Below, one piece after another: positions 21,610-38,574 of a stretch of DNA of 64,000 nucleotides. The notes beneath the pieces are model-generated. The model worked only from the letters and a program-made list of their open reading frames with translations, made no database searches and was not told the DNA's origin. The stretch is from Escherichia coli. Lineage in GTDB: Bacteria; Pseudomonadota; Gammaproteobacteria; Enterobacterales; Enterobacteriaceae. Position numbers and translations under genes: made by a program. The stretch is taken from assembly GCF_044324875.1 (NCBI RefSeq), contig NZ_CP172185.1; one strand, 5' to 3'. Position 1 is the stretch's first letter, and each line of letters begins with the position of its first letter.

Positions 21610-21640
21610 TGACTGTATAAAACCACAGCCAATCAAACGA

Positions 21641-21669
21641 AACCAGGCTATAATCAAGCCTGGTTTTTT
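21641..21669 (+). terminator. Rho-independent terminator after araD
   Basis: aaccaggc-loop-gcctggtt followed by ttttt. Confidence 0.6.
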
Positions 21670-21683
21670 ATTGGATTTTTAGC

Positions 21684-24035
21684 GTGGCGCAGGCAGGTTT
21701 TATCTTAACCCGACACTGGCGGGACACCCCGCAAGGGACAGAGGTCTCCTTCTGGCTGGCGACGGACAACGGGCCGTTGCAGGTTACGCTTGCACCGCAA
21801 GAGTCCGTGGCGTTTATTCCCGCCGATCAGGTTCCCCGCGCTCAGCATATTTTGCAGGGTGAACAAGGCGTTCGCCTGACGCCGCTGGCGTTAAAAGATT
21901 TTCACCGCCAGCCGGTGTATGGCCTTTACTGTCGCGCCCATCGCCAGTTAATGAATTACGAAAAGCGCCTGCGTGAAGGTGGCGTTACCGTCTACGAGGC
22001 CGATGTGCGCCCGCCAGAACGCTATCTGATGGAGCGGTTTATCACCTCACCGGTGTGGGTCGAGGGTGATATGCGCAATGGCGCTATCGTTAATGCCCGT
22101 CTGAAACCGCATCCCGACTATCGTCCGCCGCTCAAGTGGGTTTCTATTGATATTGAAACCACCCGCCACGGTGAGCTGTACTGCATCGGCCTGGAAGGTT
22201 GCGGGCAGCGCATCGTTTATATGCTGGGGCCAGAGAATGGCGACGCCTCCGCGCTCGATTTCGAACTGGAATACGTCGCCAGCCGCCCGCAGCTACTGGA
22301 AAAACTCAACGCCTGGTTTGCCAACTACGATCCCGATGTGATCATCGGCTGGAACGTGGTGCAGTTCGATCTGCGAATGCTGCAAAAACATGCCGAGCGT
22401 TATCGTATTCCGCTGCGGCTGGGGCGCGATAACAGTGAGCTGGAGTGGCGCGAGCACGGCTTTAAAAACGGCGTCTTTTTTGCCCAGGCCAAAGGGCGGC
22501 TAATTATCGACGGTATCGAGGCGCTGAAATCCGCGTTCTGGAATTTCTCTTCATTCTCGCTGGAAACCGTCGCTCAGGAGTTATTAGGCGAAGGAAAATC
22601 TATCGATAACCCGTGGGATCGAGTGGACGAAATTGACCGCCGTTTCGCCGAAGATAAACCTGCGCTGGCAACTTATAACCTGAAAGATTGCGAACTGGTG
22701 ACGCAGATCTTCCACAAAACTGAAATCATGCCATTTTTACTCGAACGAGCGACGGTGAACGGTCTGCCGGTGGATCGGCACGGCGGTTCGGTGGCAGCGT
22801 TTGGTCATCTCTATTTTCCGCGAATGCATCGCGCTGGTTATGTCGCGCCTAATCTCGGCGAAGTGCCGCCACACGCCAGCCCTGGCGGCTATGTGATGGA
22901 TTCGCGGCCTGGGCTTTATGATTCGGTACTGGTGCTGGACTACAAAAGCCTGTACCCGTCGATCATCCGCACCTTTCTGATTGATCCCGTCGGGCTGGTG
23001 GAAGGCATGGCGCAGCCTGATCCAGAGCACAGCACCGAAGGTTTTCTCGACGCCTGGTTCTCGCGGGAGAAACATTGCCTGCCGGAGATTGTGACTAACA
23101 TCTGGCACGGGCGCGATGAAGCCAAACGTCAGGGTAATAAGCCGCTTTCGCAGGCGCTGAAGATCATTATGAATGCCTTTTATGGCGTGCTTGGCACCAC
23201 CGCCTGCCGCTTCTTCGATCCGCGCCTGGCGTCGTCGATCACCATGCGTGGTCATCAGATCATGCGGCAAACCAAAGCGTTGATTGAAGCGCAGGGCTAC
23301 GACGTGATCTACGGCGATACTGACTCAACGTTTGTCTGGCTGAAAGGTGCACATTCGGAAGAAGAGGCGGCGAAAATCGGTCGTGCACTGGTGCAGCACG
23401 TTAACGCCTGGTGGGCAGAAACGCTGCAAAAACAACGGCTGACCAGCGCACTGGAACTGGAGTATGAAACCCATTTCTGCCGTTTTCTGATGCCAACCAT
23501 TCGCGGAGCCGATACGGGCAGCAAAAAGCGCTACGCCGGGCTGATTCAGGAGGGTGATAAACAGCGGATGGTGTTTAAAGGGCTGGAAACCGTGCGCACC
23601 GACTGGACGCCGCTGGCCCAGCAGTTTCAGCAGGAGCTGTACCTGCGTATCTTCCGCAACGAGCCATATCAGGAGTACGTCCGCGAAACCATCGACAAAC
23701 TGATGGCGGGTGAACTGGATGCGCGGCTGGTTTACCGTAAACGCCTTCGCCGTCCGCTGAGCGAATATCAGCGTAATGTTCCGCCTCATGTACGCGCCGC
23801 TCGCCTTGCCGATGAAGAAAACCAAAAGCGCGGTCGCCCCTTGCAATATCAGAACCGCGGCACCATTAAGTACGTATGGACCACCAACGGCCCGGAGCCG
23901 CTGGACTACCAACGTTCACCACTGGATTACGAACACTATCTGACCCGCCAGCTACAACCCGTGGCGGAGGGAATACTCCCTTTTATTGAGGATAATTTTG
24001 CTACACTTATGACCGGGCAACTTGGGCTATTTTGA
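21684..24035 (+). CDS. polB: DNA polymerase II (B family)
   Basis: 783 aa; [15 protein letters not shown]; exonuclease and polymerase motifs (YGDTDS); start appears to be GTG. Confidence 0.93.
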
Positions 24036-27915: not shown

Positions 27916-28437
27916 ATGAAACATTCATTTGAAGTAAAACTTGCCGCTGTAAATCACTACCTGGCTGGTCATGCAGGCATCATTTCTACGGCAAAACTCT
28001 TTCAACTTTCTCACACCAGCCTCTCACACTGGATTAATCTTTTTCTTCTTCACGGTCCTCGGGCACTGGATTGCAGACACAAGCGTAGCTATTCTCCTGA
28101 AGATAAACTTTGCGTGGTTCTTTATGCTCTCGGGCATTCTGAGTCTCTACCCCGGGTAGCTGCCCGGTTTAACATTCCCAGCCACAACACGGTTAAAAAC
28201 TGGATAAAAGGCTACCGCAAATCTGGTAATGAGGCCTTTATCAGGCGCTGGAAGGAGAAAAGCATGACCCGTTCTGATGATACCCATGAAAACGAGGCAA
28301 ACATGACGCCGGAAGAGATGAAGAATGAGCTGCGTTATCTTCGCGCAGAAAATGCATATCTGAAAGCCATGCAGGAGCATCTCCTGGAAAAAAAGCGCCA
28401 GGAGCTGGAGAAAAAACGAAAGTCATCCGGAGCCTGA
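27916..28437 (+). CDS. IS3-family transposase OrfA (HTH DNA-binding)
   Basis: ORF 27907..28437; ATG at 27916 with gaagg SD; HTH region plus C-terminal leucine zipper-like LRYLRAENAYLKAMQEHL. Confidence 0.8.
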   Translation: MKHSFEVKLAAVNHYLAGHAGIISTAKLFQLSHTSLSHWINLFLLHGPRALDCRHKRSYSPEDKLCVVLYALGHSESLPRVAARFNIPSHNTVKNWIKGYRKSGNEAFIRRWKEKSMTRSDDTHENEANMTPEEMKNELRYLRAENAYLKAMQEHLLEKKRQELEKKRKSSGA

Positions 28438-28541
28438 GGTGCGGACACTGCCAGTCTGACCTGTTAAAGGCTGCAGGGCTGGCCAGAAGCACGCTGTACT
28501 ACCAGCTGTCACTGCAGAAGGCTAAGGACAAGTATGCTGAT

Positions 28542-29296
<755 letters not shown>

Positions 29297-30398: not shown

Positions 30399-32768
30399 AT
30401 GAAAAAACGTATCCCCACTCTCCTGGCCACCATGATTGCCACCGCCCTTTATAGTCAACAGGGACTGGCAGCCGACCTCGCCTCACAGTGCATGTTGGGC
30501 GTGCCAAGCTATGACCGTCCTCTGGTACAGGGCGATACCAATGACTTACCCGTGACTATCAATGCTGACCACGCGAAAGGGGACTACCCGGATGACGCCG
30601 TGTTTACTGGCAGCGTGGATATCATGCAGGGTAACAGCCGCCTGCAGGCCGACGAAGTGCAGCTCCATCAAAAAGAGGCACCAGGACAACCGGAGCCGGT
30701 ACGTACCGTTGATGCGCTCGGTAATGTCCATTACGACGATAACCAGGTGATCCTCAAAGGGCCGAAAGGCTGGGCGAATCTGAACACCAAAGATACCAAC
30801 GTCTGGGAAGGTGATTACCAGATGGTGGGTCGTCAGGGCCGCGGTAAAGCGGACCTGATGAAACAACGTGGCGAAAACCGCTATACCATTCTGGATAACG
30901 GTAGCTTTACCTCCTGTCTGCCGGGTTCTGACACCTGGAGCGTGGTAGGTAGCGAAATTATTCATGACCGCGAAGAACAAGTTGCGGAGATCTGGAACGC
31001 CCGCTTTAAGGTGGGTCCGGTACCGATCTTTTATAGCCCCTATTTGCAGTTGCCGGTGGGTGACAAACGTCGCTCTGGTTTCTTGATCCCGAACGCCAAG
31101 TACACCACCACCAACTACTTTGAGTTCTACCTTCCATATTACTGGAACATCGCGCCAAATATGGATGCCACCATCACGCCGCATTATATGCATCGTCGTG
31201 GCAATATCATGTGGGAGAACGAATTCCGCTACCTCTCCCAGGCGGGCGCTGGCTTGATGGAACTGGACTATCTGCCTTCAGATAAAGTCTATGAAGATGA
31301 ACACCCGAACGATGACAGTTCACGTCGTTGGTTATTCTACTGGAACCACTCCGGGGTCATGGATCAGGTGTGGCGTTTCAACGTCGACTACACCAAGGTC
31401 AGCGATCCTAGCTACTTCAATGATTTTGATAACAAGTACGGTTCCAGTACTGACGGCTACGCAACGCAAAAATTCAGCGTTGGCTATGCGGTGCAAAACT
31501 TCAATGCCACCGTTTCAACCAAGCAGTTCCAGGTCTTCAGCGAGCAGAACACCAGTAGCTACTCGGCAGAGCCGCAGTTAGACGTTAACTACTACCAGAA
31601 TGATGTTGGTCCGTTTGATACACGCATTTACGGCCAGGCAGTGCACTTTGTTAACACCAGAGACGACATGCCTGAAGCAACCCGTGTTCACCTGGAACCG
31701 ACCATCAATTTGCCGCTCTCTAATAACTGGGGCAGCATCAATACCGAAGCGAAGTTGCTGGCAACCCATTATCAGCAAACCAATCTTGACTGGTATAACA
31801 GCAATCCACAAAACAATAAGTTGGCAGATTCTGTTGACCGTGTAATGCCGCAATTTAAAGTTGACGGTAAAATGGTCTTCGAACGTGATATGAATCTGCT
31901 AGCACCGGGCTTTACCCAAACGCTGGAACCGCGCGCGCAGTATTTGTACGTGCCGTATCGCGATCAGAGCGATATCTACAACTACGACTCTGCCTTATTG
32001 CAATCCGATTATTCGGGCTTGTTCCGGGACCGGACTTACGGCGGTCTTGACCGTATTGCCTCCGCTAACCAGGTGACGACCGGTGTCACATCTCGCGTAT
32101 ATGATGATGCTGCCGTTGAACGTTTTAATATTTCCGTTGGTCAAATCTACTATTTCACGGAGTCTCGCACTGGCGATGACAACATAACATGGGAGAATGA
32201 CGACAAAACGGGATCACTGGTGTGGGCAGGCGACACCTACTGGCGTATCTCCGAGCGTTGGGGATTGCGTGGCGGGATTCAGTACGACACTCGCCTGGAT
32301 AACGTGGCGACCAGTAGTTCTAGTATTGAGTATCGCCGAGATGAAGACCGTCTGGTGCAGCTGAACTACCGTTACGCCAGCCCGGAATATATTCAGGCTA
32401 CACTGCCAAGAGACAGTAGAGATAAACGTTGGAATGCCCCTCAGTACAAAGATGGTATTTCGCAGGTAGGTGCCGTCGCCAGCTGGCCAATTGCCGATCG
32501 TTGGTCCATTGTTGGAGCCTACTACTACGACACCAATGCGAACAAGCAAGCCGACTCTATGTTAGGTGTGCAATACAGCTCCTGCTGCTATGCAATTCGC
32601 GTCGGTTACGAGCGGAAGCTGAACGGTTGGGATAACGATAAACAACATGCGGTATATGACAACGCAATCGGCTTTAACATCGAACTTCGCGGCCTGAGCT
32701 CCAACTACGGCCTGGGTACGCAAGAGATGCTGCGTTCGAACATTCTGCCGTATCAAAACACTTTGTGA
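30399..32768 (+). CDS. lptD: LPS assembly outer membrane protein LptD
   Basis: 789 aa, [24 protein letters not shown] signal peptide; followed by surA. Confidence 0.93.
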
Positions 32769-36300: not shown

Positions 36301-37149
36301 ATGGCGACATACCTTATTGGCGACGTTCATGGTTGTTACGATGAACTGATCGCATTGCTGCATAAAGTAGAATTTACCCCTGGGAAAGACACCCTCTGGC
36401 TGACAGGCGATCTGGTCGCGCGCGGCCCTGGTTCGCTGGATGTTCTGCGCTATGTGAAATCCTTAGGCGACAGCGTACGTCTGGTGCTGGGCAATCACGA
36501 TCTGCATCTGCTGGCGGTATTTGCCGGGATCAGCCGCAATAAACCGAAAGATCGCCTGACACCGCTGCTGGAAGCGCCGGATGCCGACGAGCTGCTTAAC
36601 TGGCTGCGTCGCCAGCCTCTGCTGCAAATCGACGAAGAGAAAAAGCTGGTGATGGCCCACGCCGGGATCACGCCGCAGTGGGATCTGCAGACTGCCAAAG
36701 AGTGCGCGCGCGATGTAGAAGCGGTGCTGTCGAGTGACTCCTATCCCTTCTTTCTTGATGCCATGTACGGCGATATGCCAAATAACTGGTCACCGGAATT
36801 GCGGGGGCTGGGAAGACTGCGGTTTATCACCAACGCCTTTACCCGTATGCGTTTTTGCTTCCCGAACGGTCAACTGGATATGTACAGCAAAGAATCGCCG
36901 GAAGAGGCCCCTGCCCCACTGAAACCGTGGTTTGCGATTCCTGGCCCTGTCGCTGAAGAATACAGCATCGCCTTTGGTCACTGGGCATCGCTGGAAGGCA
37001 AAGGTACGCCGGAAGGTATTTACGCGCTGGATACTGGCTGCTGCTGGGGGGGTACATTAACCTGCCTGCGCTGGGAAGATAAACAGTATTTTGTCCAGCC
37101 GTCGAACCGGCATAAGGATTTGGGCGAAGGAGAGGCGGTCGCGTCTTAA
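36301..37149 (+). CDS. apaH: Bis(5'-nucleosyl)-tetraphosphatase (symmetrical)
   Basis: 282 aa, [16 protein letters not shown], metallophosphatase GDLVARGP...GNHD. Confidence 0.93.
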
Positions 37150-37173: not shown

Positions 37174-37773
37174 ATGGCTGACTATTTTGAAATACGTGCT
37201 GATTACAATCAGCACACCATCACGGTTTATCAGGCTTACAATGATGCAATCGCTGACGTCGCCGTACGTGACGGGCGATTTGACGCACCTTTTTCATTCA
37301 ACCGCATGACCTGGATTAAACCCTCTTTTATGTGGATGATGGAGCGTAGCAACTGGGGACTGAAAAAAGATCAACAACGCATTCTCGCAATCCGAATCAA
37401 ACGCACCTTCTTTGATACATTGCTGGAACAAGCGGTGCTAACTACGCCGGAAGCCCATGTCTACCCACATGCAGGAGTTTGGGAAACGTTATTTGCGCAA
37501 GCAAATGTATATGTTCAGTGGGACCCAGAACGCAGCATAAATGGCAAAAAACTGGAGCACCGATCATTACAGCTTGGTATTTCTCGTAACTTGATCAGTC
37601 AATTTAACGAAGACGCGATTGTTGCCATTGATGATCTGACGCCGCTGGTGCGAAAGTGTCATAACCTATTGATAAACGGCAAAACAACACAGGCGAAATC
37701 CTTCCTGCCGCCAGAAGAAATTTATCCTGTTAGTGCAGCTGCAAGAAAGGCTTTGGGAATGAAAAATTTCTGA
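37174..37773 (+). CDS. Hypothetical protein (199 aa), strain-variable, no family assigned
   Basis: Strong SD (gggagga) just upstream of ATG; starts 24 nt after apaH stop; lower GC than flanks; Trp-rich motif TWIKPSFMWMMERSNWG. Confidence 0.6.
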   Translation: MADYFEIRADYNQHTITVYQAYNDAIADVAVRDGRFDAPFSFNRMTWIKPSFMWMMERSNWGLKKDQQRILAIRIKRTFFDTLLEQAVLTTPEAHVYPHAGVWETLFAQANVYVQWDPERSINGKKLEHRSLQLGISRNLISQFNEDAIVAIDDLTPLVRKCHNLLINGKTTQAKSFLPPEEIYPVSAAARKALGMKNF

Positions 37774-37808
37774 GACAAATACGCGCCTATTAAGCGGAAA
37801 ATATCTAA

Positions 37809-38276
37809 GTGCGACAAATCAATGCCGGGCTTAATACCAGAGAAATTATTCTGGAAATGATTGACGAAGCAGATGAACCCCCATTTGCTGAGCAGCGAAC
37901 CTGGCATCGCAGGCGAATCACTTTTCTTTGTGATTGCATCAGCGTTGCTGTCGACTACGGCTTCTTCTGTTCTGTCTCTCAGCAGTCAATAATGAACATA
38001 ACCAGGATGGCTGAAGATGTATGGATAACAGAAAGTAAAACGACCCAACTCATTGATATCTGGCAACAACTTAAGCGGCTTTATCCGCCAAACATTATTC
38101 CCTGCACCCAGCAGTTACCCGCTAAAGAATTGCTTGAACTGCTACTTTCCAGTCCTGACGATCTTCGAATAATTGAAATCCCTGACATCATCGGTGATGT
38201 TTTTGATGACCAAACCTGGATTCGATTATTCAAAAAACACTTTGCTGATATTATCTTACTACGATGTAATGTGTAA
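37809..38276 (+). CDS. Hypothetical protein (139-155 aa depending on start), strain-variable
   Basis: ORF immediately downstream and co-directional with 37174..37773; AT-rich; start codon uncertain (non-ATG at 37809 or ATG ~37857). Confidence 0.4.
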   Translation: MRQINAGLNTREIILEMIDEADEPPFAEQRTWHRRRITFLCDCISVAVDYGFFCSVSQQSIMNITRMAEDVWITESKTTQLIDIWQQLKRLYPPNIIPCTQQLPAKELLELLLSSPDDLRIIEIPDIIGDVFDDQTWIRLFKKHFADIILLRCNV

Positions 38277-38574
38277 CAATCTAAAATACATCGCCAGACG
38301 ACAGACCAAAAAGAAAGTATTTAGCAGATACTCAACATTCTGACTTCTGTACAGAAATAGCAGAGTTTAAAAACTTAAAATTTCCGGTACTCATCAGAGA
38401 AACATCCTGTTTCTTCTGCAAGTTCATTTAATGCCGAGATGGCATCCTCGTTTACTTCAGTCCACTGTAGAGTGGCTTGAGGGTTTAGACCTACGCAATG
38501 AGCGCGACTCACAAAATCGCGCTCACTGGTAAAATCAGACGTCTTATCGTTCAATTTGTAGTCATAGCAAAAAC

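Follow-up and report, generated by a model that had tools for sequence, protein, structure and literature searches.

At which codon does translation of polB begin, and does the same kind of answer hold for other genes of this region that seem to start at something other than ATG? In the stretch of Escherichia coli DNA analysed here, 64 kb long and referred to below as the window, the original prediction placed the polB start at a GTG (21684..21686, plus strand; CDS 21684..24035, 783 aa), that of carA at a TTG ending at 59257, and those of thiB and caiE at GTG 12100 and GTG 53508, respectively. Here, we propose that these four genes almost certainly do begin at GTG or TTG, and that the Shine-Dalgarno sequence sets the site, whichever start-like codon comes first in the reading frame. 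All four codons are present and in frame, coincide with the curated starts of E. coli K-12 MG1655, and directly precede the family-typical N-terminus of their protein. For polB and carA, the prediction that the non-ATG starts match known annotation holds, the MG1655 RefSeq record giving identical codons at identical positions. The GTG starts of thiB and caiE, which had been called only “probable”, are borne out, and that of thiB can be upgraded to experimentally shown (PMC11487190). Alignment of N-termini with those of orthologues, which had been suggested as a check, supports all four non-ATG starts across genera. Both the curated K-12 annotation and the literature already give these starts; they are a routine annotation point, and the finding as such opens no new question.

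The window is a segment of the E. coli chromosome over its full length, with best matches at 98.4-98.9% identity, and it runs as the reverse complement of MG1655 from ilvH to lspA. The K-12 gene order is kept, a few accessory differences aside. When the MG1655 coding sequences were mapped onto the window by BLAST, 51 were placed, with nucleotide identities of 92.9-100% per mapped gene (rihC, at 92.9%, being the most divergent), and the 49 complete genes were used to compare starts. The curated MG1655 start, in both position and codon, is that of the window in all 49. Among these genes, 44 begin with ATG, 4 with GTG (polB, thiB, caiE, and yabR) and 1 with TTG (carA). E. coli is reported to use AUG, GUG and UUG in 83, 14 and 3% of its genes (10.1101/063800), from which about 6.9 GTG and 1.5 TTG starts would be expected among 49 genes, against the 4 and 1 observed. 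Hence, non-ATG starts are not enriched in the window (5/49; P(X>=5)=0.94), and relative to the general class of near-cognate bacterial starts, which covers about 17% of E. coli genes, the window lies, if anything, slightly below average.

The fifth non-ATG start annotated in K-12, that of yabR, had not been included in the original prediction. This gene lies between ilvI and leuO and encodes a small protein of 14 codons (2282..2326, plus strand; GTG at 2282..2284), with a 100% match to the MG1655 yabR coding sequence. Its Shine-Dalgarno, AGGAGG (-10.3 kcal/mol), is the strongest in the window. For the MG1655 counterparts of the five genes, polB (b0060), carA (b0032), thiB (tbpA, b0068), caiE (b0035) and yabR (b4726), the start positions and the codons GTG, TTG, GTG, GTG and GTG are shared with the window, as are the protein lengths of 783, 382, 327, 196 and 14 aa. 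The 25 nt upstream of the carA, thiB and yabR starts are likewise identical in the two strains. On the K-12 chromosome, the polB, carA, thiB and caiE starts correspond to positions 65780, 29651, 75480 and 35371. Nucleotide identity to MG1655 is 96.3-98.1% for the four predicted genes and 100% for yabR, so that the divergence is at strain level only.

How do such codons serve as starts? GUG and UUG are read by the initiator fMet-tRNA through a first-position mismatch, such that the protein still begins with methionine. They typically initiate less than AUG does, and a Shine-Dalgarno at a working distance fixes the site in each gene. In reporter tests, initiation from GUG and UUG reaches 10-100% of the AUG level, and from AUU only 1-2% (Hecht et al., 10.1101/063800).

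In polB the choice of start is the simplest. GTG 21684 is the first and only ATG, GTG or TTG after the in-frame TAA at 21651, and the Shine-Dalgarno is weak, being GGA only (-3.1 kcal/mol, rank 40 of 49), with no ATG, GTG or TTG as a rival. We compared 80 polB loci from about 20 Enterobacteriaceae genera, taking one genome per species. Every one of the 79 other loci with enough upstream sequence has GTG as the first codon of the conserved N-terminus, and in 71 of these no other ATG, GTG or TTG lies between the N-terminus and the stop before it. The first base of this codon is invariant in all 80 sequences. Over the first 290 codons of the 80-sequence codon alignment, variation occurs at all 35 four-fold and all 16 A/G two-fold synonymous sites that belong to invariant residues; a G/A position left unconstrained at the start would therefore almost certainly have changed. 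Judging from this alignment, the preference for GTG over ATG at the polB start seems to be kept up by selection across the family. This strict conservation adds modestly to the known facts, as one mild extra. The Pol II chain in the PDB begins MAQAGF and is 783 aa long, which agrees with the start but follows the database sequence and is no independent proof. In papers of 1990-91, purified Pol II was reportedly sequenced from its N-terminus and matched to the dinA/polB reading frame. A full-text literature search found no published statement of the polB GTG start, and direct experimental mapping of the N-terminus or initiation site was likewise not found in the literature searched, either for polB or for caiE.

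The polB control region (21612..21666, plus strand) holds a LexA-box-like sequence, CTGTATAAAACCACAG, at 21612-21627 and a -10 hexamer, TATAAT, at 21649-21654. The hexamer lies inside the loop of a hairpin (21640-21666) that is followed by a run of T; together, hairpin and T-run look like the araBAD terminator. Of the 80 Enterobacteriaceae sequences, 70 have a LexA-like box, which in 66 of them precedes the GTG by 71-73 nt; the -10 hexamer precedes the GTG by 29-31 nt in 75 of the 80, and the hairpin arms are exactly complementary over at least 6 nt in 64. The leader differs from that of MG1655 by three substitutions, including the change of the -10 hexamer from TATACT in MG1655 to TATAAT in the window.

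In light of this constancy, what might the polB GTG be for? The gene is the LexA-regulated dinA gene, and a cell contains about 50 molecules of Pol II, a number that SOS raises about 7-fold (PMC2680738). A start at which both codon and Shine-Dalgarno are weak, behind a promoter under LexA control, fits a low basal amount of Pol II, and we infer that the weak start may have been selected to limit the enzyme. A further-reaching proposal is that the GTG, the weak Shine-Dalgarno and the -10 hexamer in its hairpin loop are together under purifying selection in Enterobacteriaceae as a deliberate brake on Pol II translation, possibly a start-codon-dependent control point (e.g. one sensitive to IF3) during stress, and not a frozen accident; this we put forward tentatively, as a possibility that is rather less than likely.

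For the other three predicted genes, a second reading has to be weighed, namely that translation begins at the codon that opens the longest open reading frame. These codons are GTG 59284 in carA, TTG 12088 in thiB and GTG 53487 in caiE; each is in frame without an intervening stop and would make the protein 9, 4 or 7 residues longer, respectively. We regard this reading as very unlikely. The original prediction listed 14 genes in which the longest frame overcalls the gene, and all 14 do extend beyond the curated start, by 4 to 36 codons: ilvI (+4), leuO (+28), araC (+17), araD (+10), kefC (+32), fixA (+21), caiC (+5), caiD (+36), caiF (+35), ispH (+28), djlA (+15), apaG (+18), sgrR (+7), and thiQ (+7). 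Added to that list are leuB (+1 codon) and leuL, and the excess in the non-ATG genes themselves is +9 for carA, +7 for caiE and +4 for thiB. Every candidate start was scored by the pairing energy of positions -20 to -3 with the 3' tail of 16S rRNA. In 16 of the 18 genes with a longer alternative the Shine-Dalgarno is stronger at the curated start, the exceptions being araD and leuB, the latter a case of adjacent codons. As a matter of annotation hygiene, the longest-frame track overcalls about a third of the window's genes, and Shine-Dalgarno context with cross-genus comparison recovers the curated starts, non-ATG ones included.

In thiB (tbpA), the GTG at 12100..12102 (plus strand; CDS 12100..13083, 327 aa) is followed by codons for LKKCLPLLLL or, read further, for LKKCLPLLLLCTAPVFAKP. 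A GAGG at 12090-12093, 6 nt upstream of the GTG, pairs at -6.9 kcal/mol, compared with -0.1 kcal/mol at TTG 12088, which overlaps the Shine-Dalgarno itself. In Enterobacter, Cronobacter, Citrobacter and Klebsiella the sequence at this place is (G/A)AGGTGCAAA-GTG, with the Shine-Dalgarno, spacer and GTG of the window. The upstream TTG is kept in 2 of these 4 other genera, but Cronobacter has TAA in its place. The start has moreover been tested by experiment: changing GUG to GAG (U130A) abolishes expression of a tbpA translational fusion, the Shine-Dalgarno mutation G121C lowers it, and the toeprint of the 30S subunit with tRNA-fMet falls at C144, which is +15/16 from the GUG, and is reduced by TPP (PMC11487190). 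The GUG start, and with it the short form of the protein, is thus experimentally shown, by published mutagenesis and toeprinting. The solved ThiB chain in the PDB can be aligned no further back than the first residue behind the predicted signal peptide. This implies cleavage of the N-terminus, so N-terminal proteomics cannot test this start.

The thiB start also belongs to a known regulatory element. A TPP riboswitch aptamer (Rfam RF00059) is recognised at 11970..12069 (plus strand) with 66.1 bits (E=9e-11), above the gathering score. In the minimum-free-energy fold, a hairpin past the aptamer takes in GAG of the Shine-Dalgarno and the spacer GCAAA and ends beside the GTG. The Shine-Dalgarno and GTG lie in the expression platform of the riboswitch and are hidden when TPP is bound. 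In the published E. coli tbpA riboswitch, the Shine-Dalgarno is sequestered once TPP binds, and the 30S subunit is kept from binding (PMC11487190); the aptamer, Shine-Dalgarno, spacer and GUG described there are all shared with the window (Commun Biol 2024, PMC11487190). Nothing of substance differs between the two, though the window strain has espY2 inserted between sgrR and the riboswitch. The riboswitch and start region is invariant in the five genera, and therefore without covariation. Two alternative pairings are open to the element CCUUUGCC (12072-12079): one with GGCGAAGG, at the aptamer's 3' end, and the other with GCAAA of the spacer together with the first G of the GTG. We speculate that pairing of this G with C12073 of CCUUUGCC might constrain the position to G rather than A.

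The caiE GTG (53508..53510, plus strand; CDS 53508..54098, 196 aa) lies 5 nt past the TAA of caiD (53500-53502). Its Shine-Dalgarno, AGGA, is inside caiD, 11 nt upstream, which is a long spacing, and pairs at -5.7 kcal/mol, compared with -3.0 kcal/mol at the rival GTG 53487, which itself lies inside caiD. CaiE homologues from more than 10 genera, including Citrobacter, Phytobacter, Pseudocitrobacter, Kluyvera, Plesiomonas, Proteus, Providencia, Yokenella, and Aeromonas, are about 195-202 aa long and begin with MS[YIF]Y[AS]FEG or a close variant. The codon homologous to the caiE GTG is ATG in Citrobacter, Proteus, an Aeromonas-like contig and Phytobacter (4/4). In-frame stops occur upstream of the start at a distance of 6 codons in Citrobacter and 2 codons in Phytobacter, and these rule out the 7-codon extension. 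Judged by this comparison, the E. coli GTG is the true caiE start, at a position that has alternated between ATG and GTG. Set against the constancy of the polB GTG, this turnover is a minor example of start-codon choice being open to selection. A start 5 nt after the end of caiD, with its Shine-Dalgarno within that gene, hints at translational coupling, and the arrangement suggests that caiE may be coupled to caiD.

The carA TTG (59255..59257, minus strand; CDS 59257..58109, 382 aa) follows, at a distance of 5 nt, a GGAGG at 59267-59263 that pairs at -9.8 kcal/mol and ranks 3 of 49, and GGAGG(A/G)TGTT precedes the carA start in all compared records. TTG is the weakest of the three common starts, and this is offset by the near-perfect GGAGG, which is among the strongest Shine-Dalgarnos of the window. 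Elsewhere, the start codon is TTG in records labelled Klebsiella, Yersinia and Erwinia, GTG in one labelled Salmonella, and never ATG. The upstream GTG that opens the longest frame (59282..59284, minus strand) has a GTG or TTG counterpart 9 codons before the start in all five records, with no intervening stop, so that the comparison alone does not rule it out. We judge it to be unused: it lacks Shine-Dalgarno pairing (+0.4 kcal/mol), and it sits in conserved, AT-rich, operator-like DNA, where conservation need not mean coding. We take this conserved sequence to be the arginine operator. The initiation codon of carA is stated to be TTG in a review by Charlier and colleagues (PMC6245113). The CarA chain in the PDB, of 382 aa, begins MIKSALL, but as it follows the database sequence it is no independent proof. 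Within the carAB control region, the stretch immediately before carA at 59305-59357 (minus strand) matches the Rfam sRNA family ES003 (RF02750) with 87 bits.

The least credible alternative is that carA is initiated at the adjacent ATT (59254-59252) to give a protein one residue shorter, for which GGAGG, 8 nt upstream, would also be at a workable spacing, and PDB chain 1a9x_B (379 aa) begins at the CarA residue after the methionine; a carA paper of 1984 is said to have left the choice open as “UUG or AUU”, but across the records codon 1 varies between the start-capable TTG and GTG, which as sense codons would mean a replacement between Leu and Val, whereas codon 2 changes only synonymously, as Ile (ATT/ATA), a pattern that favours TTG over its neighbour. 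The AUU rate of 1-2% of AUG, compared with 10-100% for UUG (10.1101/063800), and the recent review (PMC6245113) also stand against ATT, and TTG 59257 is retained as the carA start.

Some accessory features of the window also bear on its annotation. Compared with K-12, setA is absent, and leuD, sgrS/sgrT and sgrR are therefore adjacent (region 8945-9271); of the 132 nt of sgrT, only the first 110 are matched to K-12. The type III secretion (T3SS) effector gene espY2 (11160-11729, minus strand, 189 aa) lies between sgrR and the TPP riboswitch, within 10931-11969, and the stretch that carries it is found, at a query cover of at least 80%, in about 1025 of 5426 complete E. coli genomes. In the gap between rluA and djlA, where K-12 has yabP/yabQ, there is an IS1397-like element of the IS3 family (27916-29264, plus strand), with a programmed frameshift that links its orfA to orfB; its annotated start is ATG 27916, and the longest frame, from GTG 27907, overcalls it by 3 codons. 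Between apaH and folA lies an accessory island (37174-38512) that is present in about 536-795 of the 5426 E. coli genomes. It encodes a DUF4291 protein with an ATG start (37174-37773) and two products with GTG starts of the PGAP style that had not been listed by the original prediction: a hypothetical protein of 155 aa (37809-38276), without a clear Shine-Dalgarno, and a 45-aa remnant of ccdA, for the CcdA antitoxin (38512-38375, minus strand). Finally, protein lengths differ slightly between the window and K-12 for LptD (789 versus 784 aa), CarB (1072 versus 1073), ApaH (282 versus 280) and SgrR (552 versus 551), the loci being 30399-32768, 54873-58091, 36301-37149 and 9272-10930, respectively.
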